IMG/VR virus record: IMGVR_UViG_3300020711_000011
Span: 1-58,446 of that record
Source: a virus
Lineage: Duplodnaviria > Caudoviricetes
Length of the DNA stretch: 58,446 nucleotides
Direction: 5' to 3' (one strand)
Part shown: positions 2,987 to 57,971 of the stretch, in pieces
How the letters are laid out: every line of letters starts with the position of its first letter
Position numbering within the stretch: position 1 is the first letter of the stretch
Made by a program: the position numbers and the translations under genes
Notes under the pieces: generated by a model
The model's input: only the letters and a program-made list of their open reading frames with translations
The model's database searches: none
Told to the model about the DNA's origin: nothing

Positions 2987-5049
2987 TATACAATGTTGAC
3001 TATTCCGTAATATAAGGTTGAAGAACTTCCACCATTCGTTAAGTTAATGTAGAACTTATCATTTGCTGCATTCACATCAGGTTGATCGAATCTCGTTGCA
3101 ACTGATTTCGGTATTTTAAATATTACCTCTCCTTTGCTTAGATCGATATCTGGAAATGTATAGTCTGCGGCAATGCTTTGTTCTACTGAGCCACTCTTAA
3201 TTAAAAGATTCACTGAATCTGCATTCACTAATGAAACTGCAGTCATCGAATCTCCTGTTTGTTGAGCAATTATAAATTTAATAAAATTATCTGCAACTTT
3301 AGAAAGGGTCATAACACCAGATCCTTGCGGTTGATAATTTAATGGGCTTGTTGTTGTTATTGTGGTACCGTTTAAAGTAGCTTGAGAATTTCCAGCCATT
3401 ATATTTACAGTTTCAACTGCAACTGGAACGTATCTGGTTTCTCCAACAGTAGGTCTAATTGAATTGATAAAGGTTTCTATTGCTCCTGTTGCTGCAGTAG
3501 ATACGATCGTGTTATAAACCTTGTTCACTACATTATTTCCAATACCAAGTTGCAACATCTTTTTGCCATATTTCGATGGCTTATTATAGATTAAAGAAGC
3601 TTGCTTTAATATTTGAGTATTATCAGTTTCATTGTAGATTCTTAAATTCAAATTAATCATAAATGAAGCTGCAATATTTGCATTTTGAATTATTGGTCTA
3701 AAATTAATTGGAGTATCAAAGTTTTGAGTTTGAACATACGAACCTGTAAAGGTTGAAGCAAAAGCCAAACCAATTTGTTCTAAGATTTCAATATCATAAA
3801 ATACAGTGATGTCATCGCTACTAGTAGTCAATCTATTTAAAATATATTGAGAGAAGTTAGATATTGAACCATCTTTTTCTCCATATAATTGAAAGTAATC
3901 TCCATCTCCAGCTTCTGCGATTACTGCAGTAATATCTTGATATTCATCTTGCTGTGCAATAGTAACATCAGTTTCATGGCCAGTATCTGCATAATAAACA
4001 TTATTAACTTGTACTAAGCTATTAATTAATTTAAATGCAATTTCATAGTTTGCAGTTGGATTTAATGCTATCGAACTTGTAGGATCTGCTGATCCAAAGA
4101 ACGCAGTTTCAAAATCTAAATTGATCGCTGAATTAAACATATCCACCAATGATGGAACTTTAACTTCGATAAATTTAGAGAATGGAGTTCCAGCTAAAAC
4201 AAATGGTGAAGGATTCTGAACTTCATAACTTGAAAAATTCAAGTACGCTAAAGAGGTAAAGAAGTTATAGATTCCAGAGTTTCTCTTTGATTTAATTTGA
4301 AAGATAAAACCCTGTAAGCCTCTTGCTCCAAATGAGAATCCAGTTCTTAAGTGTAGTCTAACGGTATCATAATTTACTAAATTGTTAGTAATCGTTTGAT
4401 ACGTTAAATTTTGAGCAGTTGTACCAGTCCAGCTTGGATCAGAAAGATAAGTTAATGCATTGTCCAATAAGGCAAAACGGGTACCGTCAGTGTTATCAAC
4501 AATCGCATAATATCTTCCAACCTCTCCAACTCCAGTTTTAATGGTGTTTCCAGTTTCTTGTTCTGGTAAAGTATAGTAAGGATTTACTTTGTTTCTAACT
4601 TGAATGGTTCCAGCATTGTAATTTACATTTGCTGCTCCAGTATATGAATATTGATATGTTCCATTTGTATTTGGAGAATAAATCAAGTTAGTTCCTTGCA
4701 CTGTTAAACTTCCACCTCCACTTATTACAAAGTTTGATGGTGTTGGTAATGCTGAAAGGTTAAAAATATAAGTATTTCCGTTTTGTAATTGTAATTCTCT
4801 CGACGCAAAATCGTTAATAACGATGTATGCACCATTTAACGTAACTGTAAAGTTAACAACATCTCCACCCAATTCATTTATTAAATAACGGGTTTGAGTA
4901 TTGTCAGATGCTATAGTATTTAAAAATTTGACATGGCTTCCGCTATTGCCAACTGTAATTTCAGTAGCAGTAGGATTCGATTGATCGTGATAGATGAATT
5001 CTAATAAGACATCCGGATCTAACCTTAAAAATTTAGAAGATTGAGCCAT
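2986..5049 (-). CDS. Virion structural protein (hypothetical)
   Basis: 687-aa beta-rich N/T/S-rich ORF in the structural operon. Confidence 0.55.
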   Translation of the reverse strand: MAQSSKFLRLDPDVLLEFIYHDQSNPTATEITVGNSGSHVKFLNTIASDNTQTRYLINELGGDVVNFTVTLNGAYIVINDFASRELQLQNGNTYIFNLSALPTPSNFVISGGGSLTVQGTNLIYSPNTNGTYQYSYTGAANVNYNAGTIQVRNKVNPYYTLPEQETGNTIKTGVGEVGRYYAIVDNTDGTRFALLDNALTYLSDPSWTGTTAQNLTYQTITNNLVNYDTVRLHLRTGFSFGARGLQGFIFQIKSKRNSGIYNFFTSLAYLNFSSYEVQNPSPFVLAGTPFSKFIEVKVPSLVDMFNSAINLDFETAFFGSADPTSSIALNPTANYEIAFKLINSLVQVNNVYYADTGHETDVTIAQQDEYQDITAVIAEAGDGDYFQLYGEKDGSISNFSQYILNRLTTSSDDITVFYDIEILEQIGLAFASTFTGSYVQTQNFDTPINFRPIIQNANIAASFMINLNLRIYNETDNTQILKQASLIYNKPSKYGKKMLQLGIGNNVVNKVYNTIVSTAATGAIETFINSIRPTVGETRYVPVAVETVNIMAGNSQATLNGTTITTTSPLNYQPQGSGVMTLSKVADNFIKFIIAQQTGDSMTAVSLVNADSVNLLIKSGSVEQSIAADYTFPDIDLSKGEVIFKIPKSVATRFDQPDVNAANDKFYINLTNGGSSSTLYYGIVNIV

Positions 5050-10204: not shown

Positions 10205-13200
10205 TTAAGAAATTATATTGACTAGGAGCTCAAATTGATAATTATAACCTGGCCTCTTATTATATATTAGTCTAAATCCAAGTCGATCCGTAGGAAATGT
10301 CTGAGTCTGATAATTGGTTTGCATTGTATATACTGAGGTATCAATCAATGATGGATTATCAACACTTAAAAATTCTGTTGAAATATCTTTACCCTCTCTG
10401 GCATATACAACAATGCTGCCTAAATTAAATCTTGGTACAATATTATTATCAGTATAAACTATAAGATCATCCAGGGTTGTCGTTACATCACCGTATGAAT
10501 GATTAGCACTAACATAGTCATCGAATTTATATTTAATACCATCTGCTAATAATTTAGCAAACATAGATTTTTTAATGTAAACGTCGGCATATACTTTGTC
10601 CGTATCTTCGAACCAAACTATCGAACTGGTTTCTGAATCATTTGTTCTAATCGTATTCATTTGATCCAATGAACTAACGTTCATCGAAGTAAAATTAGTT
10701 ATTTGATATTGACTTTCAACCTTCATTATCGTCGATGCCAAGAACGCTGTCTTTTCAATAGGACTTAGGGTTCCATATGCCGTCGAAGAAATATTATTCG
10801 GAGAAGCTTTTGTAAAATATGTTGGAGAATACTTAGATTCTAAAACATTCATCGTTTTCTTATCAATCGCGATCTCACCAATTTTTGGATATAGAGGTAA
10901 TTTATCAGATGATGTTGACAATTTCAATGTAGAATCAGGTGCCTCTGGATTTACTTTATGGAAATAATAGTTATATAATAGACCAAATCCATTTTCATTT
11001 GTAGAAATATAGGTATCAAATGCGATTCCTAATCTATTAAATTTATCGTAGATTAATTTCTTTCTATAATCTACCGATCCGCTAGTATCATAAGCTTTGT
11101 ATTCTGTAAAAATATCTGTGAATGCAACAACATCTTTTACCAATGGGTTATATAAACCATTCATTCTTCGCATCGCCGTAAAATATGGATCACTTCTTTC
11201 AGTAATAATCTTACCGACATCCTGTGATGTAATTTTGTATGAATTAGGTTTATCTGAATCCACAGAAGGTTCAATGTAAGAAGCCTTTGCAAATGCAGTA
11301 CCATTATCGATTTCTAATACAAAATTATTTACTGATTCTGTTCCATCAGCGCTAATTGTTGTATAATTAATATTTGTTGAAAATTGATTAAATAAATTTG
11401 CAAAGCTCGATGCCTGTAAAGATTCTAATATAGATTTAAATGCATTATAACCTCCACCGATGTAGGTGTATGGTATTACGCTCTGTTCATTAATAGAAAT
11501 ACCTGCAACACCAGTCCACTCTGTACCTAATGATCCATTTGCCCATACTCTAGGATATCCATCTACAATAATTGATGAATCATTAGAAACACTTAGAACT
11601 TTTAATGCATATTGATCTGAACCATTTAATGGCCAGTTAAAAACCAAATATGAATATCCTCCACTTTCGGTAAGAGTTAATTGACTTTCAAATTTAGTTT
11701 GATTTCCCAAATTATCTGGAATTCCATTTACGGTTACTGGACCATTTGTCCATGCTGCATGTTTTAAATCTAATGTGCCACTCATTGCAGAATTATTGTA
11801 AGTTCCATTTAATTTAGAGTGTACCAATTCATACAGAACCTTTCTAGTCAATTCGTTTACATCATTTGGATTTAATTGTAAGTTAATATAGATACAAATA
11901 AAATCAAATGCATCATTTTTAATAACATCAATAGAATATTCGTTTGATGTCGCATCTGTTAAATTAATTACTGAACCAAATTTATAATCATTCACTAATG
12001 TATTACTAATAAATTCAGTAGGATTAACCTTATTGAATTCCTTTCTTGCCTTGTAAGTATATCTTAAACCTCTAAATACTGTCGATGCAAATTTATATTG
12101 AGATCCTTTATCGAAGTTAGAGTACAACTTTTTAGATCTATCTTTTACAAAAGAAATTTGATCTTTTAAAAATAAATCATTTATTGAAAAACCTGGATTT
12201 GATCCAGAAAAGCTTAATATTGATGCTCCATCTACTGTTGAAATATTTCCAGCACTTGGAAGCGTTATAATTGCACCATCTAATCTAACTACCGTAGTCG
12301 AAGACGTTAAAATAGTTGAAGAAACGATATCACTAAAATAAATTAAGGTAACTGATCCAGTTGTTATTTTTGTAACTGAAACTGTATCTCTAAATGCTCC
12401 ATCCCAAATAAAATATTTGCTAAAGTAATCATTTGTATAACTTTTTAAATTTGCAACATTTAATTCTGGATTATTTGAATTCAATAGAATAGAATCATAT
12501 CCAATATAACTATCCAACTCATTAATATTTGAATCTGTATCTTTAAAAATAGTAGGGATTCCATAGATATGAAAGTGTTCCATGCTATAGTCTAATGGAT
12601 TTCTAGATTTTCCGCTCTGAATATCAGGAGATATATTGTCAGTTCCAAATGCCTCATTAACATTTAAAAGATATGGTTTCATCCTTGCATTAAATGCATC
12701 CTTAAGAGCAAACTTATTTATTGTAGGAACCATCCTACTTAAAATTGCAGTTTCTTTTAATTCATTTTCATAAAGTCTATCATATTCAGAATCTGCAGTT
12801 ACATCTTTAATAATTAAAGTAGCATCCTGGGATAGATCAGTTATTGTTGATCTTCTATTAACTATTTCCGGTTGCAAAACTGAATACAGTGTTGGAAAAT
12901 ATGAAGATGCTTCCTCTGTAAAATTAGAGCTACATGCGCCCGCATAATTATTATAATAAGAAGAACTTAATAAAAGGTCCTCAAACGATAATTCACCTAA
13001 ATTAGAATTAGAAGTGTCATAAAAATCAAAGTCAAAGTCTTTAATTGCATATGCACTAAATTTACCGTATGTCGTAAAAGATTCAGCGTATACGTTTAAT
13101 ACTTTAGATTTCGGTACATCTATTACATTTTCTAAAATGATTCTGCTCGTAGCAGTTAAAAATGGATCAGCAATAATTTGAGTAATTTTAGAGAATGTAT

Positions 13201-24418: not shown

Positions 24419-24700
24419 TTATTTAACTTTTTTGTAGTTTTTATCAACCGTATAGTTCTTAAAGATCTTTAAGTACGATACGCCGTTTATATATTTAACC
24501 AAAATATTTTGAAGCAACACGATGAAATCGCTAACAAATGTGTTCTTATAGATTGATGGTGAAATGCTATTAAAAAGCAAATCCTTGGAGAAATTTCTTC
24601 CAAGGTTTAATCTATTATCTTTAATTTCAGTCTGTATGTCATAGATACTTTTTCGATCTGACTTGAATAGACCGTGATATAAGTTTTGCTTTGTTGCCAT
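24419..24700 (-). CDS. Small baseplate-associated protein
   Basis: ORF translationally coupled to the gp6-like gene. Confidence 0.5.
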   Translation of the reverse strand: MATKQNLYHGLFKSDRKSIYDIQTEIKDNRLNLGRNFSKDLLFNSISPSIYKNTFVSDFIVLLQNILVKYINGVSYLKIFKNYTVDKNYKKVK

Positions 24701-26902: not shown

Positions 26903-26917
26903 GTTTTATATATTTTC

Positions 26918-34368: not shown

Positions 34369-34385
34369 GAGTTATATATTTAATT

Positions 34386-46099: not shown

Positions 46100-47023
46100 T
46101 TATAAACTATTTTCAAAATCTTTTCTGTACTTAAGCAGTGCAAGTTCTTTTGCCTTTGATTCTAATTCTATATCAATCAAATATCCGTGTGTATTGATTT
46201 CTTCGTAGATGTAATCGGCATGAGCCCTGAAGATAGAATCTTCGTCTTCGTTAATTTTCTTCGACGATGAATAGTGCGTTATTGGAATAATGCTGCTGTC
46301 CCATGATTTGAATGCCAGTCCAAGGGCTTCTGCTTCGGTAAGGTTACCTGGGTTGCATTGATGATGCAGAAAATCGAATGTGATCGGAATTCCAATGTTC
46401 TTATAGATTCCTTCGTATAGGTCTTCTACCGTGTACATCGAAGCCTTGTCATCATTCTCGATCACCAATCTTTTCTTTGCAGTATCATCCAACAGCTGGA
46501 AGTTGTCGCAGAATGTCCTGATTGTCTTCTCTTTGTCGCCATAAGCACCACCAATATGAATATTGATTGGATAATAAGGTGTTCGTGGCAGACCCATCAG
46601 ATCCAATATCTGACCATGCTGACACAGTTCTTTGTATGCTTTTTGAACAACTTGCGGCTTTGGAGATGCCAATACGTTAAAGGGTCCAGGATGGAACGTA
46701 AGTCTTACACCATTTTTTTGTACCGTATCACCGATACGTTCTAATATGACCTGAATCTTTTTGAAGTCTGGAAGATCGGTTAACTCATATTCTGACATCC
46801 ACGGAACCATATCGCTTGACATTCGGTACACTTTGATACCTCGTTGAATGTTCCATTGAATTACCTTTTCGAGGTCTTCGACGTTTTTAAGAGTGAGTTC
46901 TGAAGAGTACTTGATGCCTTTATCGTTGAAAGTTTTTCTGATCATCGATCTATTGGTCGTCAAGTTTTTTGATTCTTGTAACGTAAGATTAATGCAACAA
47001 TAACCCAAATTTAAGTTGCTCAT
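46100..47023 (-). CDS. uvsE: UV DNA damage endonuclease UvdE/UvsE
   Basis: LGYCCIN, RMSSD, HPG, IHIGG, IENDD, FDFLHH, HYS and AHAD motifs. Confidence 0.93.
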   Translation of the reverse strand: MSNLNLGYCCINLTLQESKNLTTNRSMIRKTFNDKGIKYSSELTLKNVEDLEKVIQWNIQRGIKVYRMSSDMVPWMSEYELTDLPDFKKIQVILERIGDTVQKNGVRLTFHPGPFNVLASPKPQVVQKAYKELCQHGQILDLMGLPRTPYYPINIHIGGAYGDKEKTIRTFCDNFQLLDDTAKKRLVIENDDKASMYTVEDLYEGIYKNIGIPITFDFLHHQCNPGNLTEAEALGLAFKSWDSSIIPITHYSSSKKINEDEDSIFRAHADYIYEEINTHGYLIDIELESKAKELALLKYRKDFENSL

Positions 47024-47510: not shown

Positions 47511-47855
47511 TTATTTCCAAAGCAACTGGACCGCAATTAAAATAGCTGCGATTCCTAAAGAAACCATAGTTTTTGTATTAAGACCTTCATCCATTAGGAT
47601 CCAAGTCATTACGGCAAAGATTACCATTCCAGTAGCTTGACCTAAAAATCTTGCAGGCCAAAGCTCTCCTTTAAAGTGTAGGGCAATATATTGTACTGAT
47701 TGAATAAACATATAGGACGCAGAGGTACCGAATATAAGTGATACGATAAACGGATGTTCTTTAAATTTAGGATAGATGAACTGTCCATAACTTTGAAACC
47801 ACACCAAAATTTGCGCGAAAGCCATATAGAGAAATCCAATAGTTAAATTGTTCAT
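47511..47855 (-). CDS. Small 4-TM membrane protein (DMT/SMR-like)
   Basis: Four hydrophobic helices in 114 aa. Confidence 0.6.
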   Translation of the reverse strand: MNNLTIGFLYMAFAQILVWFQSYGQFIYPKFKEHPFIVSLIFGTSASYMFIQSVQYIALHFKGELWPARFLGQATGMVIFAVMTWILMDEGLNTKTMVSLGIAAILIAVQLLWK

Positions 47856-48484
47856 TAGAATAATTGTTCTGTTTTTGTTAACAGATGCGATATGAAACTC
47901 ATTCTATGATTTTTACTAGGACCTAATGTTTTAATTGCATTAATGTGCGCTGCAGTACCATATCCCTTGTTCGAAGCCCATCCATAAATCTTACCCTCTT
48001 CTTCGTTTCTCATCCATTCATCATGTTTTACCTTTGCTATGATCGAAGCCGCAGCGATGGCAGTATATTTATTGTCTCCACCGACTATTGTTTGATATTT
48101 ATAATCATGATAGCCGTGAAATTGATCTCCATCGACAATAATAAAATCAAATTGTTGGTTTTGTTCTGTTAAACTATCCAAACATTTCTTCATTCCATGC
48201 ATCGTTGCATTTAAAATGTTGATCTTCTCGATCATTTCAGGTTCTATATGGACACAAGACCATGCGATCACATTATCCATTACCACTTTATAAGATTCTG
48301 CCTTCTGTGGTTCAGAAAGCAATTTAGAATCTCTTATCGCTGGGTGTTGGAATCCAATGGGCATTATGCATGCTGCAACGGTAACCGGTCCTGCTAAAGC
48401 TCCTCTTCCAGCCTCATCGAGTCCAACCTCTATAATGCTTGTGTTCTCGTTAAACTGCGATTTCAATAAGATCAATTTTGGCAT
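47855..48484 (-). CDS. rnhB: Ribonuclease HII
   Basis: GLDEAGRG, RDSK, VDG, IAAASIIAKV and NKGYGT motifs. Confidence 0.95.
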   Translation of the reverse strand: MPKLILLKSQFNENTSIIEVGLDEAGRGALAGPVTVAACIMPIGFQHPAIRDSKLLSEPQKAESYKVVMDNVIAWSCVHIEPEMIEKINILNATMHGMKKCLDSLTEQNQQFDFIIVDGDQFHGYHDYKYQTIVGGDNKYTAIAAASIIAKVKHDEWMRNEEEGKIYGWASNKGYGTAAHINAIKTLGPSKNHRMSFISHLLTKTEQLF

Positions 48485-48507: not shown

Positions 48508-48534
48508 TTATATGAAAATATGTGTAAAAGTTTA
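48508..48534 (-). promoter_or_regulatory. Putative middle-class promoter TAAAC-N16-ATATAA
   Basis: Recurring bipartite motif upstream of rnhB. Confidence 0.55.
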
Positions 48535-49218
48535 CTTACCGTTCTCATCTTTCCACTTTTCATAGCGGTTAACAACGTCTTGTAGAATTTTAGCTCTTAC
48601 AATATCTTTTTCGCCAAAGATATGTGTTCCGATTCCTTTAATTCCTTTCAACATATCCATGAACGACGGCAGAGATACCTTTGATTTAGCGATGTCGTGT
48701 TGACTTACGTCTCCAGCAACTATCACTTTAGAATCCTTACCCATTCTGGTAACAAAAAGCATCAATTGTTTATAATCGGCGTTTTGCGCTTCATCAAGGA
48801 TCATCAATGCATCATCGAATGTATCACCTCTCATGTATGCGAGCGGTTGAAATTCAATAATGCCTTTTCCGAATAGGGTTTCAGTCTGAGAGAAGCCTAT
48901 GATTTTTTCAATATTGGATTTATAAGATTTCATGTAGGGATCCACCTTCTCATCGATCGTTCCTGGTAAAAAACCAAGTTTCTCTCCAGCCTCTTGAATG
49001 GGCTTACATAAAATAATTCTTTTAATTTTCTGTTCTTGTAATAATTGGAGTGCTACATAGCATGCTGTAAAAGTTTTAGAGGTACCTGCTGGTCCATAAC
49101 AAAATGTAATATCATTCTCTAAAACCGTATCGACATAATTAATTTGAGATTGCCTTAATTGTACGTGATTGGTTGTTTCCTTCTGACTGCTGTTCTTTTG
49201 ATTTTTAGATGATGCCAT
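48532..49218 (-). CDS. phoH: PhoH family ATPase
   Basis: GPAGTSKT, LGFLPG, LAYMRG, ILDEAQN and GDVSQ motifs. Confidence 0.93.
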   Translation of the reverse strand: MASSKNQKNSSQKETTNHVQLRQSQINYVDTVLENDITFCYGPAGTSKTFTACYVALQLLQEQKIKRIILCKPIQEAGEKLGFLPGTIDEKVDPYMKSYKSNIEKIIGFSQTETLFGKGIIEFQPLAYMRGDTFDDALMILDEAQNADYKQLMLFVTRMGKDSKVIVAGDVSQHDIAKSKVSLPSFMDMLKGIKGIGTHIFGEKDIVRAKILQDVVNRYEKWKDENGK

Positions 49219-49234
49219 GCATTTTATCTATTTT

Positions 49235-49492
49235 TTAGTCTCCTGCCATTATAACAAGATCCTTGAGCTTCATCAGTTTTTCGCACTTTTCATACTCTTC
49301 CAAGTCTTCAAAGTACTCAACCAATAAATCTATAAATTTTGATCGTTGACCAGTTCCGTGTGGGATTTCGATGGTATTCTTACCATCTTGGAATGCAATA
49401 AACCTGTTCACAGTCTTGGTAAAGTTTCTAGTTACATTGTAGTAACTAGATCTCATTAGGCTATCTTTTTCTTCGTTAGACATATAATTCAT
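49235..49492 (-). CDS. Small protein with C-terminal UVR (UvrB/C)-like motif
   Basis: YFEDLEEYEKCEKLMKL; start revised to lie downstream of the late motif at 49539-49546. Confidence 0.7.
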   Translation of the reverse strand: MNYMSNEEKDSLMRSSYYNVTRNFTKTVNRFIAFQDGKNTIEIPHGTGQRSKFIDLLVEYFEDLEEYEKCEKLMKLKDLVIMAGD

Positions 49493-49615
49493 TACCAGTC
49501 TGTTCTTTCTTTTTGTGGCTGTATACCGTTGTTCGAGGTATATATTACAGCCGAACAAATAATACAACAATTTCGGATATTTTATTACGTTAATAAAATG
49601 TAACAAAATCCCTGA

Positions 49616-49804
49616 TTAGTCTATGTTTTGTTGTTTTTGTTGTTTGTAGATTGCTTTAAGGTTCTGAGTTCTATTGATAACACTTGGTTTTTCGAACTCT
49701 TTTCTTTTTTGTAGCTCTTGGGTTTGCTTAGTTTTAAGAACCTTTCTTTTGTATTCCTTTAGAGCTTTTTCAATATTACCGTCTTTGATATTAACTATAA
49801 TCAT
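49616..49804 (-). CDS. rpsU: Ribosomal protein bS21
   Basis: NIEKALKEYKRK...RKEFEKPS...KAIY, Bacteroidia-like. Confidence 0.92.
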   Translation of the reverse strand: MIIVNIKDGNIEKALKEYKRKVLKTKQTQELQKRKEFEKPSVINRTQNLKAIYKQQKQQNID

Positions 49805-50061
49805 AGAGTTTCAATAATTTTTTTAAGGTTGTGACACTTTTCATATTCTTCGCGAGATTCAAACCATTTTATTAATATATCTAATGCTTCAATTTGAGTT
49901 TCTCGAGGTACATTTCCATCTTGTAGAGCACCCATCTTTTTTTCAATCAATGCGCGATATGTGATTTCCATCATTTGCGCCTGATTTAATGTTGCTAAAT
50001 AACTAAAGAATTGGTTTGGATTATTTCCATCTAGTATATCATCATACTGTTCCACTTTCAA
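49801..50061 (-). CDS. Small protein with C-terminal UVR-like motif
   Basis: WFESREEYEKCHNLKKI; overlaps both the J-protein gene and rpsU. Confidence 0.7.
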   Translation of the reverse strand: MKVEQYDDILDGNNPNQFFSYLATLNQAQMMEITYRALIEKKMGALQDGNVPRETQIEALDILIKWFESREEYEKCHNLKKIIETL

Positions 50062-50851
50062 CTTCCTTTATTTTATGTATCAGCTCAATTTGAGCATCAT
50101 TTAGGCCGTGGAATGTTGTGTTTAGTTTTACAAGAATCGAACCCGATTCGTGCGTATTGTATATTGGTAGTCCTTTTCCTGGAATTCTAAGTACTTTTCC
50201 AGGTCCTGATTTCGGAGGTATCTTAAATGATATTTTTCCGGTTGGAGCCGTAATTTCTGCGGTAGTACCCAATATCATATCATAGAACCTGACATTGGTT
50301 TCGAACCATATATCATTCCCTTGTATGATAAATTGTTCACTTGGTATAATTGTAACCGTGACAATTAGATCACCCCTGGGAGCGTTACTGTTCATTGGGT
50401 GATATTGACCTCTTTGCGGGTACTTAAATATCATTCCGTTCTTCACTCCTTTTGGAAAATTGATGTTTATCTTATCGTATCCCATGTCAAACACTCGTTG
50501 CGCGCCATAGATCACGTCGTAGATGGACAATTGAGCCGAAACCTTGACGTCCGGACCCTTGTTTCCTCGGTTTCCAAATATGTTATCGAAGTCTCCGGCA
50601 AAATTACTGCCGAAATTAAAGTTCTTTAGCAGATCTTCAAGGGACGGACCGCTTTGTGTACGATCGTAAGTTGCCTTTTTATTTGGATCACTTAAGACGC
50701 TATAAGCTTCTTGGATCTGTTGAAATCTGACTTTGGTATTTGCATCTGGATTTTTATCAGGATGGAATTCCTTTGCCAGATTTCGGTATGCACGCTTGAT
50801 TTCATCCTGCGTTGCAGCATCACTAACTCCTAATGTGTTGTAGTGACTCAT
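50042..50851 (-). CDS. DnaJ/CbpA-type (class B) co-chaperone
   Basis: J domain with HPD, short G/F region, DnaJ_C domain, no zinc finger. Confidence 0.93.
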   Translation of the reverse strand: MSHYNTLGVSDAATQDEIKRAYRNLAKEFHPDKNPDANTKVRFQQIQEAYSVLSDPNKKATYDRTQSGPSLEDLLKNFNFGSNFAGDFDNIFGNRGNKGPDVKVSAQLSIYDVIYGAQRVFDMGYDKININFPKGVKNGMIFKYPQRGQYHPMNSNAPRGDLIVTVTIIPSEQFIIQGNDIWFETNVRFYDMILGTTAEITAPTGKISFKIPPKSGPGKVLRIPGKGLPIYNTHESGSILVKLNTTFHGLNDAQIELIHKIKEVESGTV

Positions 50852-51087
50852 TATTTCTCGTTTTTACGTCTGTCAATAGCCTCTTGTATCTTTTCTCTGG
50901 TACCGGTAACGATATCGATTTTTTGCTGACGTTCCATTAAATCGGCAACTCGTTTAAGTTGTTTGGCTAGTTCTTGAGCGGTTGATTCGGTAATAGGAGA
51001 GACTGTGTTCTTGCTCTTTGGAGATGCCAGGGCTGTGGTCCATCCCTTTGGAACTTTAGCGGGCAATTTTACTTTTTTATCTGACAT
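50851..51087 (-). CDS. Small basic hypothetical protein
   Basis: 78-aa ORF coupled to the J-protein gene. Confidence 0.6.
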   Translation of the reverse strand: MSDKKVKLPAKVPKGWTTALASPKSKNTVSPITESTAQELAKQLKRVADLMERQQKIDIVTGTREKIQEAIDRRKNEK

Positions 51088-51141
51088 AATATTGTAATAT
51101 TTTAATCTATTTTATATATTCGGCTTTCTTTGTTTACAAGA

Positions 51142-51163
51142 ATGGGTTCCTTTCGGAACCCAT
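51142..51163 (-). terminator. Hairpin/terminator
   Basis: ATGGGTTCC-GAAA-GGAACCCAT with a weak T tail. Confidence 0.7.
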
Positions 51164-51186
51164 ATCATATCACTACCATAAAATCT

Positions 51187-51519
51187 CTAAATTTGTTCAA
51201 GGTAATCTCTAAGAATCGAACACTTTTCGTACTCTTCGGTCTTTACGAAATAGTTCATCATAAATTCCAGAGTTGCCTTTAATTTTACCATTGCTTCAGG
51301 ATCCAAATTAACCATTTGTCTTGTAGCATTGATGTCTAAACCGTGCATTTGTATGGTTTCGTAATTAAACCTAACATATCCATCGATCGCCTTTTCAAAG
51401 ATTTCATTTGCTTTCATTTTGTCTTCTGAAGAGAAGTCATCTGGAAATTCATTGTCATTGAAATTTTCTTCAAAGCCATCTTCGTCATCAAAAAAGTCGT
51501 CGTTAAAATCGTCAATCAT
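51187..51519 (-). CDS. Acidic small protein with C-terminal UVR-like motif
   Basis: D/F-rich N-terminus; YFVKTEEYEKCSILRDYL. Confidence 0.72.
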   Translation of the reverse strand: MIDDFNDDFFDDEDGFEENFNDNEFPDDFSSEDKMKANEIFEKAIDGYVRFNYETIQMHGLDINATRQMVNLDPEAMVKLKATLEFMMNYFVKTEEYEKCSILRDYLEQI

Positions 51520-51538
51520 AAGTTATTTATTTAATTTA

Positions 51539-51573
51539 TGTAAATATAAACAATTTATCTGATACGGTAAAAT
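51539..51573 (-). promoter_or_regulatory. Early promoter repeat, copy 3
   Basis: TTTTACCGTATCAGATAAATTGTTTATATTTACA. Confidence 0.75.
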
Positions 51574-51578
51574 TTATT

Positions 51579-51953
51579 TTAAGAAATTTTAACCTTTTTT
51601 ACAGTTTTTTCTGGTTTAACAGATTCAAATCCAATTGTCAATATTCCATTAATCAAAGATGCTTCAACCTTATTTAAATTTTTAATTTTAAATGATGTTT
51701 CAAAGCTTCTTTTATAAAAGGTTTCGTCTTCTGATTTGATTTCTGCTGAAATTTTCAGTAAATCATTTTCAATTTCGATGTTTAATTCTTCTTGAGAATA
51801 TCCTGGTACGATAAATATTATCGAATCATCATGAACAGTATAAGACGGATAAGAATACGTGGTCGTTGTTTTTTTCCATCCTATTGGATCATACGTTAAT
51901 AATCTTTCTAAATCATGCAGGTCGCTGGTTCTAGTGTTAAATAGTGAAAACAT
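51579..51953 (-). CDS. Small heat-shock protein (Hsp20/alpha-crystallin)
   Basis: VPGYSQEELNIEI..LKIS, ASLINGILTI, C-terminal V-K-I motif. Confidence 0.88.
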   Translation of the reverse strand: MFSLFNTRTSDLHDLERLLTYDPIGWKKTTTTYSYPSYTVHDDSIIFIVPGYSQEELNIEIENDLLKISAEIKSEDETFYKRSFETSFKIKNLNKVEASLINGILTIGFESVKPEKTVKKVKIS

Positions 51954-52056: not shown

Positions 52057-52797
52057 TTAAGATTCAAATGGTAAAACTGTCATACCACTTAATCTTAATA
52101 AGACATTTCCAGTCGCTTTGACGTCTCTTTCGCAGTATTGTATAATTTGATCCAGGTTACCCTTCCAATAGTTTGAAGATACTTCACCACCTTCCATCTG
52201 TTCCTTTGGCGATGGGATCCCCAGTGATTCGCATACAACTCCTAGTTTTGCAGAGGTCCAACCACCAAACTTCCAGATCTCTGCGGTATCTAATAAACAG
52301 TTATCCCATGGTTTGATTTTTTGCATATGCAACTGATGTGGCAATTTAACTCCTAACATCATTGCCTTTCTACAAATAAAAGGTATATCGAATCCTTTAA
52401 TGTAGTGTCCTACGATTTTAATCGATGGAACCTTTGAAAAGATAGTTCCTAGGACTCCTAAGAATTCTTCCAACATTTGTTTTTCATCTCCACTGAAAGT
52501 TCTTACTTTGAAATCTACAGGTTCATCCAATTCATTAAATTTGATTTGACCCATTGAGATGCAAACCAATCTTGCCCATTCTGGATATAATGGCGACTGT
52601 GTGTTATATAAACCTTCTTCATTAAGCTTAATGAGATCAGGTCTCTCTTGCCGAATTGCTTTACATTTTTCATCCCACCAGCTCTTCATATTAGAATTGC
52701 TTGGTAATGAATCCAACCACTCATTATAATCTGCGTGCGATGACGCAGTTTCAATGTCAATAAACAACATTGTTTTTAACTCTTCTACTTTATACAT
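52057..52797 (-). CDS. PolB-related 3'-5' exonuclease (DEDDy, RNase H-like)
   Basis: FIDIET, GHYIKGFDIPF, LDT and YCERDV motifs; start revised to MYKVE. Confidence 0.88.
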   Translation of the reverse strand: MYKVEELKTMLFIDIETASSHADYNEWLDSLPSNSNMKSWWDEKCKAIRQERPDLIKLNEEGLYNTQSPLYPEWARLVCISMGQIKFNELDEPVDFKVRTFSGDEKQMLEEFLGVLGTIFSKVPSIKIVGHYIKGFDIPFICRKAMMLGVKLPHQLHMQKIKPWDNCLLDTAEIWKFGGWTSAKLGVVCESLGIPSPKEQMEGGEVSSNYWKGNLDQIIQYCERDVKATGNVLLRLSGMTVLPFES

Positions 52798-52798
52798 A

Positions 52799-53047
52799 TT
52801 ACGCTTCTTTAATGATGTCAAAAATTGAGCAAGGATAGATCCAATACGCTCTATTTAATTTCTTAGCGTCTGCTGGATCGGCTGGTACGTGGAAACTGTA
52901 CCATTTATAACCATAATGTTTGGTTAGATCTTCATTGACTGAGGCTAAAACTCCTACTCTTTGTGAAAAACCACCGAATAGAAATTCATATTCCTTGCCA
53001 ACTTTAGGATTTGCAACGTTAATAGGTCTTGCTTCTTTTTTTGCCAT
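52799..53047 (-). CDS. Hypothetical early protein
   Basis: ORF with start revised to MAKKE, behind a TATATTTG promoter. Confidence 0.6.
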   Translation of the reverse strand: MAKKEARPINVANPKVGKEYEFLFGGFSQRVGVLASVNEDLTKHYGYKWYSFHVPADPADAKKLNRAYWIYPCSIFDIIKEA

Positions 53048-53114: not shown

Positions 53115-53354
53115 TTAAAAACTTGTTCCTGTTTGATCATCCCAAGTATGGGATTGTCTTATTTTGCAAAATTGCTCGTAATTAATAGTTACTGCAACAT
53201 ATCCTCCTGTGACTGAGTAGGGGGCTTCACTCTCGGAGAACCAATACGGAGGGGTCTCTTCGATTCTATCATTTAGAAAATCGAAAAGTTCATCTATTTG
53301 CATGTGATGTACGTGGACTGTTATAACCATGCAATTGTTATTTGGATATCCCAT
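53115..53354 (-). CDS. Hypothetical protein
   Basis: 79-aa ORF coupled to the ATP-grasp gene. Confidence 0.55.
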   Translation of the reverse strand: MGYPNNNCMVITVHVHHMQIDELFDFLNDRIEETPPYWFSESEAPYSVTGGYVAVTINYEQFCKIRQSHTWDDQTGTSF

Positions 53355-54307
53355 TATTTTTGTACTTTCCAGTTTGGATTTTGTTTCATGTTCTGTTTAA
53401 TATCTGCATCTCTAAATTCTTTCAATAACTTTTCAGTATCTCCAGAAATTTGAGTTTGGTAATAATCTTGGTAGATTCTTTGGTACACCATCGACATTAC
53501 TCCAAATAAGGCTCCAGGTTCTGAATTCATTTCGAACACGTAGATCTTATCCTTCTTATCCACTGCGATATCGATCGCATAAAAGTCTAAGTCATAATGT
53601 TGCTCGATAAAATAATCGCATGCTTTTAAGAATGCATCAGAAGGTGAACCCTTCATTAAAGTATATCCAAAGTTTGTTTCATCCTCAGGATCCTTTTCAC
53701 CGATATCTTCGGTCTCTTCATCCATCGGTATTCTAGTACACCATTGTAATATCTCTCCTCTCCATAGAAAGAATCTATATTCCTGTTTGATATCGATCTT
53801 TTCACCAAAAGAAGTAAATTGACGTAGATCTGCTTTATCCATGTCTTCTTGCGTATCAAACACTTGAATTCCTAATCCGCTATGATTGTTATCCGGTTTT
53901 GCAACTATCGGAAACTTTAATTCACTAATGTCCTTTGGATCAAATACAGTTGGAATGATGTATGGACTTTTTGCGTGTAATTTATAAAATTCTGATTTGG
54001 ATGCTACTCTCTTTTTTGCATCAATCCAATTATAAACTTGTTTCTCTCTAATAGCTCCAGATTTTAAGAACTTTTGTAGGGTCTCAGTATCGTAATTTAA
54101 AACTGGTAAATCTTTCTTGATCGATGAATCCTTGTCATCTCTAACGGCAATTACCCAATAATCTCGGGTTGAATAGTCTGGGCCAGTGATAAATGAATTC
54201 TTAAGTCTTTTTCTTCTGGTAATCATTACCTTCTGAAATTCTTCACGAACATATGCTTCCTGCATAAACTGTTCGAACATCATTATTTTAGTTAGAGATT
54301 TCTTCAT
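53354..54307 (-). CDS. ATP-grasp ligase (RimK/YheCD-like)
   Basis: FPIVAKP..HSGLGI, EYR, YAIDI and FEMNSEPG motifs; N-terminal MMFEQFMQE. Confidence 0.85.
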   Translation of the reverse strand: MKKSLTKIMMFEQFMQEAYVREEFQKVMITRRKRLKNSFITGPDYSTRDYWVIAVRDDKDSSIKKDLPVLNYDTETLQKFLKSGAIREKQVYNWIDAKKRVASKSEFYKLHAKSPYIIPTVFDPKDISELKFPIVAKPDNNHSGLGIQVFDTQEDMDKADLRQFTSFGEKIDIKQEYRFFLWRGEILQWCTRIPMDEETEDIGEKDPEDETNFGYTLMKGSPSDAFLKACDYFIEQHYDLDFYAIDIAVDKKDKIYVFEMNSEPGALFGVMSMVYQRIYQDYYQTQISGDTEKLLKEFRDADIKQNMKQNPNWKVQK

Positions 54308-57386: not shown

Positions 57387-57971
57387 TTATTTAAAGTGTG
57401 ATCCACCAACCCAAAGAACCAATGACTTTCTTAAGCCTTTTGTAACCGGAGTTACTCTATGTAGCACATAAGAAGGAAATAAGACTCCGACTCCTTTACC
57501 TCTTGGACCTTGTTTCGGTTCATTTCCACCAAACCAAAGTTCTAAATCTCCACCTTCGTATTCTTCGGTATCACTCATTTGAACGGTGATCGAAATTTTA
57601 CGATGTGACATATTACCTGGTCCACAATCCATGTGCCATGTGTAATGTCCACCTTCTTCTGCATAATATTCAGTGTATTGAATTAATTCAGTTGCAGAAT
57701 ATAGATCAAAATGCCAAATTGCATTATTTGCAGTTGCTGCAAGCTTGGTTAATTTTTCGTATAACCAAATCCATTTTTGATCTTTTGGAATCCATTTAAT
57801 TCTAGAACTTCTAATTTCTTTACTGCTTTCTTCTCCTTCATCGCCAAGCTTTGCTTTGGCTGAAGATACTACAGCTAAATCTTTTTCAATTTTATCTAAT
57901 TCAATATCAGTGAAGATATTGCTATACCAGTAATAATTATCTGGTGTGTTGTGTGGTTGAACGTATTGCAT
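57387..57971 (-). CDS. 2OG-Fe(II) oxygenase, prolyl-4-hydroxylase/PKHD-like
   Basis: WHMD, YEGGDL, FPS..LHRVTPVTKGLRKSLV motifs. Confidence 0.92.
   Translation of the reverse strand: MQYVQPHNTPDNYYWYSNIFTDIELDKIEKDLAVVSSAKAKLGDEGEESSKEIRSSRIKWIPKDQKWIWLYEKLTKLAATANNAIWHFDLYSATELIQYTEYYAEEGGHYTWHMDCGPGNMSHRKISITVQMSDTEEYEGGDLELWFGGNEPKQGPRGKGVGVLFPSYVLHRVTPVTKGLRKSLVLWVGGSHFK

Follow-up and report, generated by a model that had tools for sequence, protein, structure and literature searches.

Small helical-hairpin proteins encoded in a conserved gene block of Bacteroidota phages are likely tied to Clp proteolysis

Introduction

MecA and ClpS are small cellular adaptors that dock on ClpC. For phages, few cases of control over host proteolysis are known, e.g., Gp53 of phage SPO1 and phage-encoded ClpS or ClpP. 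Gp53 is described as an adaptor-like protein for ClpC (PMC6873191), and jumbo phages are described to encode ClpP or ClpS (PMC7824862). In plants, UVR-domain proteins are described as enriched on trapped CLPC1, and in the same source ClpF, UVR2-4, and EXE1/2 figure as small ClpC-docking proteins in which a UVR hairpin accompanies the ClpC association (PMC8889267). Here, we analyze three small genes, named miniA, miniB, and miniC, on a viral contig of 58,446 bp (IMG/VR record IMGVR_UViG_3300020711_000011, positions 1 to 58,446; the whole stretch is called the window below). They had been noticed from the sequence alone as three otherwise dissimilar open reading frames (ORFs) with UVR-like tails, interleaved with genes for a J-protein, Hsp20, and the ribosomal protein bS21, and this original prediction had interpreted them as proteins that redirect the ClpCP protease of the host.

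The mini-proteins (minis) can be likened to Gp53 by role, as action of a small phage protein on a ClpC-type unfoldase has been shown for Gp53 and is proposed here for the minis. Gp53 is a 25-kDa protein with experimental binding data, whereas the minis have 8–13 kDa, stem from Bacteroidota phages, and belong to a lineage that partly has its own ClpC and ClpP. The genomic context and the profile comparisons reported below indicate that the minis are likely a small hairpin module tied to Clp proteolysis.

Results

Three paralogs in a conserved gene block

Each of the three mini-proteins ends in the motif [YW]F-x3-EEYEKC-x2-L. When the window is translated in all six frames, the hexapeptide EEYEKC appears three times, always in miniA, miniB, or miniC, and the count was 0 in each of 30 mononucleotide shuffles. 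The ORF list, the six-frame count, and the shuffles thus confirm that three minus-strand ORFs with this end exist. Each of the three proteins contains one Cys. The ATG start of miniA is backed by 35 orthologues, and a 123-aa form with a TTG start is unlikely; for miniB, the long form with the TTG start is backed by an alignment with 33 orthologues.

A scan of IMG/VR with an alignment of the three proteins gave matches in more than 597 stretches; 159 of these were confirmed as relatives, and 80 were kept. Separate alignments were generated for miniA together with distant single-copy forms (A2, 52 sequences), for miniC (A3, 29 sequences), and for miniB (A4, 34 sequences). In hhalign comparisons, A2, A3, and A4 aligned with one another over 40–60 columns with probabilities of 97.6–98.0% and E-values from 1.7e-13 to 3.7e-12. 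Because of these scores, the three mini-proteins are, as judged from their profiles, paralogs over most of the folded core and not unrelated proteins with a common tail, which refutes their initial description as otherwise dissimilar.

The gene order of the window is repeated, as a whole or in part, in 46 related viral contigs (IMG/VR loci L002-L047), and the synteny across relatives that the original prediction had named as a check was therefore found. The conserved order reads ATP-grasp...Hsp20-miniC-g78-DnaJ-miniB-bS21-miniA-PhoH-RNaseHII, and UvdE is also conserved in the relatives. Three small motif ORFs were counted in 34 of the 46 loci, two in 11, and one in a single locus; for this count the motif was relaxed to accept Ala or Ser in place of Cys, and several of the loci are cut by contig ends. 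The best conserved paralog is miniA, with 68–81% identity in syntenic loci, compared with 35–52% for the J-protein.

A fourth paralog in a phage clp operon

A clpP gene was found in 20 of 45 related contigs, all of which are fragments with a completeness of 4–74%. The operon was read in six contigs and comprises a clpC-like gene, a thymidylate-synthase-like gene, a mini gene coding for 96–102 aa, clpP, and three small genes. The encoded unfoldase has 655–671 aa and contains AAA, AAA_lid_9, UVR (21.7 bits), AAA_2, and D2-small domains as well as a G-IGF loop, with no match to Clp_N; ClpP was matched with about 190 bits. The mini of this operon is a fourth paralog. It ends in [FY][FY]xxxExY[EK]xCxx[IV], with E, Y, and C being invariant, and it aligns with the family profile over the hairpin with a probability of 96.3% (E 1.7e-9). 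In a profile search, each of the 20 ClpP-bearing contigs had the fourth paralog immediately upstream of its clpP gene, whereas none of the four ClpP-less contigs that were searched had it. In five of the six operons it abuts or overlaps clpP, and in the sixth a 279-aa ORF lies in between.

This context argues for one of the hairpin proteins being part of a ClpC-ClpP machine of the phage. The presence of the fourth paralog in a clpC-clpP operon also makes it likely that the machine includes phage-encoded ClpC-ClpP and not that of the host alone. The link to ClpC that had been predicted thus gains support from the genomic context of the fourth paralog in relatives, but the proposed target shifts from an exclusively host-encoded to a phage-encoded ClpC-ClpP. 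In one relative (G417), the genes are collinear with the end of the window, and clpP lies about 8.8 kb beyond the position at which the window stops; the phage of the window would then carry the clp operon beyond the contig end.

On this basis, we tentatively favor the reading that the minis are adaptor or regulator modules for a ClpC-type unfoldase that works together with ClpP. The hairpin would contact ClpC or ClpP, and miniA, miniB, and miniC would have the same partner as the ClpP-adjacent paralog.

A large family in two phage lineages

A family profile of 111 members (A5) was searched against 1.84 billion representative proteins and matched 1,426 clusters (50% identity) at E<=0.001, 72 of them at E<=1e-10. 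The representatives of the best 150 clusters are all stand-alone proteins of 66–126 aa that were matched across most of their length. The family signature is [YWF][FY]-x3-E-[ED]-[YF]-E-[KR]-C-x2-[LIV] within a C-terminal helix-turn-helix hairpin. The Cys after [YF]-E-[KR] is present in at least 147 of these best 150 representatives, a count that is biased upward because the A5 profile itself carries Cys. A second Cys is the last or penultimate residue in 19 of the 34 miniB-group sequences, and in the crAss-type members described below a second Cys lies 10–11 residues past the motif Cys.

Ten clusters that were looked up, from contigs of up to 260 kb, bear the name "hypothetical protein" only, and the nearest ESM Atlas clusters are 100% viral and unnamed. 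Pfam and PHROGs contain no family for miniA or miniB, and for miniC PHROGs yielded weak families of unknown function only. Searches of miniA, miniC, and a crAss-type member against 50,697 GenBank phage records with tblastn gave no match. A literature search found neither a paper on the motif EEYEKC nor a description of phage UVR-like mini-proteins, and among the papers that it gave on phages and Clp, the one on Gp53 alone was pertinent. Sub-threshold matches of family members to DUF1722 (8 of 111) and to other Pfam families were rechecked in 24 members, showed no consistency, and were discarded.

Among 401 Bacteroidota genomes, the family profile had one weak match, a 132-aa ORF ending in ...QEAYETCAVIKKW. 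This sole cellular match (positions 1228-1626 of L180, from genome G232; end ...LLKQFVKQEAYETCAVIKKWQDHI) adjoins an ankyrin-repeat-like ORF. Among the searched data, the family is thus in effect restricted to phages, as far as profile matches tell.

The distant single-copy members (L049-L080) reside in another type of phage, the large terminase of which is about 40% identical to that of crAss-like phages; these terminase relatives are phages of Bacteroides, Flavobacterium, and Cellulophaga. In 5 of the 10 crAss-like loci that were examined, the mini gene lies between the gene for a phrog_16390 protein and the terminase-portal pair. In these five loci (L049, L054, L058, L062, and L077), the phrog_16390 protein has about 175 aa and no known function, and the mini gene is on the same strand as the terminase and portal genes, so that late co-expression is possible. 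By terminase and profile relationships, the family occurs in two unrelated lineages, the crAss-like phages and the large myophages, for both of which hosts from the phylum Bacteroidota are predicted.

The restriction to phages, together with the occurrence in several copies, would also fit acidic decoys, i.e., DNA or protein mimics that are directed, similar to Ocr, against host defence or a nucleic acid-binding protein. Two more results point in this direction: the median net charge is -13 in the miniC group and -12 in the crAss-type group, and A2 has a weak, collinear two-segment match to T7 Ocr (PDB 1s7z and 2y7c, E 0.43–0.84). The two Ocr-like segments are an N-terminal helix with ...Y-N-x5-A-Y... 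and a C-terminal ...LL-x-EY-x-E-x-EEYE. However, the Ocr match is not significant; the search of A2 and A5 against the PDB had only two other hits (filaggrin, E 0.4; Trs85, E 1.2). The best conserved paralog, miniA, is barely acidic (net charge -3), and strict synteny across deep divergence is atypical of counter-defence genes. We regard the decoy explanation as very improbable.

Relation to the UVR domain and predicted fold

The UVR domain and the mini hairpin are both antiparallel helical hairpins of about 35 residues, and the register aromatic-E-x-small-x-x-L matches, followed by R-D in miniC. They differ in that the minis have the motif Cys at the position of the first Ala of UVR and in that they are stand-alone proteins, with the hairpin and an N-terminal helix forming a small bundle in the models. 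To judge by helix periodicity, the Cys would be at the point of helix crossing where a small residue is placed, which is Ala in UVR.

The Pfam UVR model (PF02151) matched miniC with 17.5 bits (19.8 bits in a genome scan), below the cut-off of 21.5 bits, and did not match miniA or miniB. At E<=0.1 it matched 2 of the 111 family members, none of them at the cut-off, whereas genuine UVR domains in host-type genomes scored 23–38 bits in 17 of 18 cases. With A2 and A5, no UvrB, UvrC, ClpC, or McsA chain was retrieved from the PDB at E<=10, and the family profile found no genuine UVR domain in the 401 Bacteroidota genomes. A profile of genuine UVR domains was then used for hhalign; it was built from 18 segments of UvrB, UvrC, ClpC (844–877 aa), and a protein that combines a bifunctional nuclease (BFN) and a UVR domain in about 200 aa, all from the five Bacteroidota genomes with bS21 proteins closest to that of the phage. 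The probability was 46.6% (score 24.5) for the miniC family, 9% for miniB, 1% for miniA and the crAss-type members, 7% for all 111 members, and 13.8% for the fourth paralog. As the profile of the unrelated bS21 yielded 16% (score 18.7), miniC alone is above the control; a second control, the J-protein, yielded 0.1%. The register was constant across all hhalign alignments, with EEYEKC opposite xxFExAA.

In the AlphaFold2 (AF2) model of miniA (pLDDT 72), helices at residues 6-22, 24-29, 49-63, and 67-84 and a beta hairpin at 31-43 were predicted. In the model of miniC (pLDDT 79, and 93–95 in the hairpin), the helices comprise residues 31-59, 63-69, 76-93, and 97-109, and the 30 N-terminal residues are disordered and acidic. 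Foldseek superimposed the miniC hairpin on the C-terminal domain of E. coli UvrB (1qoj_A) with a root mean square deviation of 1.1 Å over 37 columns with 30% identity (E 5.1); TPR proteins scored alike, and nothing was found at E<=0.001 for either model. The VIA wide fold search had a best Z of 6.8 for miniA, with a generic helical protein, and of 7.0 for miniC. Matches to BAG, TPR-like, and designed-bundle folds were at noise level and were dismissed. In the ESM Atlas, the nearest Pfam-bearing cluster is a viral protein of 63 aa with UVR on 32% of the members (score 0.83), which is a lead only.

TPR units have the consensus spacing aromatic-x5-aromatic-x2-small, which is also fitted by the mini hairpin, and 6 of the 111 members had sub-threshold TPR matches in Pfam (TPR_HPS5_insect 4, TPR_IF140_C 2). 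In contrast to TPR proteins, the minis have a single hairpin without repeats, and no match passed the cut-off. The models suggest that the hairpin is UVR/TPR-like, with descent from UVR being possible. The predicted UVR assignment thus agrees with the modeled fold of the hairpin; as to membership in the domain family, no member reached the Pfam cut-off, and in the profile comparison miniC alone stood above the control, with miniA, miniB, and the whole family below it.

These results bear on the original interpretation, which takes the tails for true UVR domains. By pairing head-to-head with the ClpC M-domain of the host, they would redirect host ClpCP. The constant register, the miniC scores, the superposition on the UvrB domain, and the 63-aa viral cluster are in agreement with this interpretation. 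Moreover, a ClpC that has a UVR M-domain is encoded by 5 of 5 host-type Flavobacteriales and Bacteroides genomes, and crAss-like carriers of the family are devoid of Clp genes of their own. However, the Pfam and PDB searches, the family search in Bacteroidota genomes, the below-control profiles of miniA, miniB, and the whole family, and the similar Foldseek scores of TPR proteins are at odds with true UVR domains, and the myophage lineage has its own ClpC. Genuine UVR pairing with host ClpC is therefore considered decidedly unlikely. In four of the five host-type genomes, a BFN-UVR protein of about 200 aa is encoded (e.g., L167 1492-2091), an architecture that is also described for the plant proteins UVR2-4 trapped on CLPC1 (PMC8889267).

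The alternative that had been offered, that the minis block UvrB-UvrC pairing in the nucleotide excision repair of the host, with the phage depending on a UvdE of its own, could draw on the conserved UvdE gene in the block and on the UVR domains of UvrB and UvrC in host-type genomes. It suffers equally from the failures of UVR membership. In addition, the crAss-like carriers lack a repair-gene context, and clpP is the only strong context link of any paralog. Apart from the motif, nothing was found in favor of this alternative, and we consider it extremely improbable.

Coupling of the mini genes to their neighbors

In the window, miniB overlaps by 20 nt with the 3' end of the J-protein gene and by 4 nt with the start of the bS21 gene. 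In relatives, the spacing from the J-protein gene to miniB has a median of -8 nt and is zero or negative in 35 of 39 cases, and that from miniB to the bS21 gene has a median of -7 nt and lies between -23 and +1 nt in 29 of 32 cases, the three outliers being tblastn matches to another paralog. The gap between miniA and phoH is 13–28 nt in 45 of 45 relatives.

Such conserved couplings would be expected if the hairpin were merely a stable scaffold, i.e., a UVR/TPR-like capping motif, and each paralog had a neighbor-specific partner. MiniB would then be a modulator of the J-protein or an escort of the basic bS21, the partner of miniA would be PhoH, and that of the fourth paralog ClpP or ThyA. A precedent is found in CbpA, where the cbpM gene follows cbpA. 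CbpM is described as a small protein that binds the J domain of CbpA, and the title of the paper ties it to transcriptional regulators (PMC4063869). Like cbpM, miniB is a small gene directly downstream of a gene for a class-B J-protein. In addition to this similarity, the N-terminal parts differ among the paralogs, and the acidic minis contrast with the basic bS21 and g78. However, the minis are helical bundles with a hairpin and have neither a sequence match to CbpM nor Pfam similarity to CbpM or MerR-type families, and no significant PDB match, a CbpM/MerR-type fold included, was found for the mini models. Furthermore, seven loci keep miniB with no match to bS21, crAss-like phages have a mini without a J-protein or bS21, and the charged tip E-E-x-E-K, which is invariant in all paralogs and in both lineages, argues for one common ligand. 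Taken together, separate partners on a common scaffold are the strongest competing explanation, possible but rather unlikely. A complex prediction for J-protein, bS21, and miniB had a score of 0.01 (mark 0.32) and is uninformative about binding either way.

Features of the window and its host

The positions of the genes of the block and of further features are compiled in Table 1. The assignments of the neighbors as J-protein, bS21, Hsp20, PhoH, and UvdE, which had been made from the sequence alone, were borne out by Pfam. The J-protein has no match to a zinc-finger domain in Pfam and contains no Cys. No significant Pfam or PHROG match was found for g78. Downstream of phoH, the minus strand continues with genes for RNase HII, a small membrane protein, g130, and UvdE. 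A distant relative (L048) keeps the order DnaJ-x-mini-bS21-x-mini-PhoH, and at positions 3233-3808 it encodes a 2H phosphoesterase with a sub-family match to the anti-CBASS protein Acb1 (PF23474, E 4.1e-7).

Table 1. Genes and other features of the window, and ClpC-like unfoldase genes of related contigs
Feature	Position	Strand	Properties and assignment
UvdE	46100-47023	-	Pfam
RNase HII	47855-48484	-	block flank
PhoH-like ATPase	48532-49218	-	228 aa; close behind miniA; Pfam PF02562, E 7.8e-64
miniA	49235-49492	-	ORF; 85 aa; isoelectric point (pI) 5.2; C-terminal end ...LLVEYFEDLEEYEKCEKLMKLKDLVIMAGD
TAATATATAC	49538-49547	-	window copy of the AAATATATA-like motif, at a distance of about 45 nt before miniA; putatively promoter-like
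bS21 ribosomal protein	49616-49804	-	62 aa; Pfam PF01165, E 6.8e-13
miniB	49801-50061	-	ORF; 86 aa; pI 4.8; TTG start
J-protein	50042-50851	-	269 aa; class-B-like; Pfam J domain 3-63, DnaJ_C 104-246
g78	50851-51087	-	ORF; 78 aa; basic, pI 10.1; stop overlaps J-protein start
miniC	51187-51519	-	ORF; 110 aa; pI 4.05; 29 D/E; C-terminal end ...MMNYFVKTEEYEKCSILRDYLEQI
Hsp20 small heat-shock protein	51579-51953	-	124 aa; Pfam PF00011, E 8.3e-11
PolB-exonuclease-like	52057-52821		block flank
ATP-grasp	53354-54307		further block flank
2OG-Fe(II) oxygenase	57387-57971		further block flank
ClpC-like unfoldases of relatives	L181 48-2018; L182 4977-6944; L184 3489-5504; L185 3507-5477		genes in related contigs

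The gap between the bS21 gene and miniA comprises about 106 nt. Three elements were observed in this spacer (49493-49615 in the window) and its equivalents in 34 loci: an AT-rich inverted repeat directly after the bS21 stop codon, often followed by a T run in relatives, a AAATATATA-like motif 35–55 nt before the ATG of miniA, and often another small hairpin. The AAATATATA-like motif is visible by eye in most of 35 printed upstream regions, and it resembles the T4 late promoter, TATAAATA. From its sequence, the spacer has the appearance of a terminator with a phage promoter behind it. The motif WAATATATAH also occurs directly upstream of four tail or baseplate gene starts (10260-10269, 24487-24496, 26906-26915, and 34372-34381, minus strand). 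With 6 matches in the window versus 5.5 expected by chance, there is no overall enrichment, so that the placement alone is suggestive.

The contig is linear and 21% complete according to CheckV, and the minus strand carries nearly all of its genes. Matches in PHROGs to a gp32-type single-stranded DNA-binding protein, baseplate wedge, tail tube, and sheath identify it, at the level of sequence similarity, as part of a large T4-like myophage. The closest relatives of its baseplate protein are from an uncultured phage of 462 kb and from Prevotella Lak phages. When cellular proteins were searched with the phage bS21, the 80 best relatives all belonged to the Bacteroidota (80 of 80; Flavobacteriales, Bacteroidales, and others; 51–62% identity), in agreement with what Chen et al. 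2022 describe for freshwater phages with bS21 (PMC9723584). A pelagiphage with SAR11 as host had been considered and was dropped, as the searches with bS21 and structural genes indicated Bacteroidota. The stretch is present in 24 sequencing runs, all of which are freshwater metagenome DNA runs, with no RNA run listed among them. Scans of the whole window for tRNAs and Rfam families remained empty, and blastn of the block returned short matches in the PhoH region only.

Discussion

In the reading that we favor, the conserved hairpin would be a docking module for a ClpC-type AAA+ unfoldase or for ClpP, and the variable N-terminal parts and the gene couplings would set the paralogs apart in their clients or regulatory roles. 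The couplings would point to clients or co-workers, which would be PhoH in the case of miniA and the J-protein and bS21 in that of miniB. In the myophage lineage, the machine would at least in part be phage-encoded, with a ClpC that has a UVR-type M-domain and an IGF loop and lacks the N-domain, and with ClpP. Where crAss-like phages have a mini and lack clp genes, the hairpin would be directed at the ClpC of the host.

Several results weigh against this reading. Neither clpC nor clpP is present within the window, and one relative with a contig of 170 kb (G412, 70% complete), which carries more than 50 kb on either side of the block, has three minis and neither clpP nor the fourth paralog. Five crAss-like genomes that are 93–100% complete have one or two minis and no ClpP, AAA_2, J-protein, or bS21, and the family is therefore independent of a phage Clp system, a J-protein, and bS21. 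The fourth paralog has the C-terminal 39 columns only in common with the family, and a common hairpin could be a structural scaffold with different partners. In hhalign comparisons with the M-domains of five phage ClpC proteins, the probabilities were 0.8–1.7%, compared with 4.1% for the control; the similarity of the hairpin to UVR, or to the M-domain of the phage ClpC, is thus at control level, with the exception of miniC versus UVR. In both AF2 models, the hairpin packs on the N-terminal helix as a small bundle and is not free-standing.

A more far-reaching version would be that the EEYEKC hairpin represents a new and widespread class of adaptors or anti-adaptors for ClpC-type unfoldases in Bacteroidota phages, which mimics the M-domain, has its own set of clients per paralog, and contains a near-invariant Cys that is functional, with J-protein and Hsp20 feeding the same pathway. 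Under this version, miniB, which is coupled to the phage bS21 at the level of translation, would direct the removal of host bS21 to let the phage copy enter the ribosomes, and the Cys would be a redox or metal switch and not merely a small core residue. At E<=0.1, 55 Pfam families matched one or more of the 111 members, and the 25 families with the most frequent matches did not include MecA, ClpS, McsB, or ClpF. A new adaptor class with all of these properties is an unlikely, speculative extension.

The present results make a very large family of unnamed mini-proteins amenable to testing, as they define one hairpin, four paralogs in one lineage, and a place in a clpC-clpP operon. Even without docking, the minis would be conserved proteins of unknown role that are frequent in crAss-like phages and in large phages of Bacteroidota. 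Should the hairpin dock on ClpC, a portable ClpC-targeting tag for Bacteroidota would be available, and the J-protein, Hsp20, and bS21 genes of large freshwater phages would be tied together.

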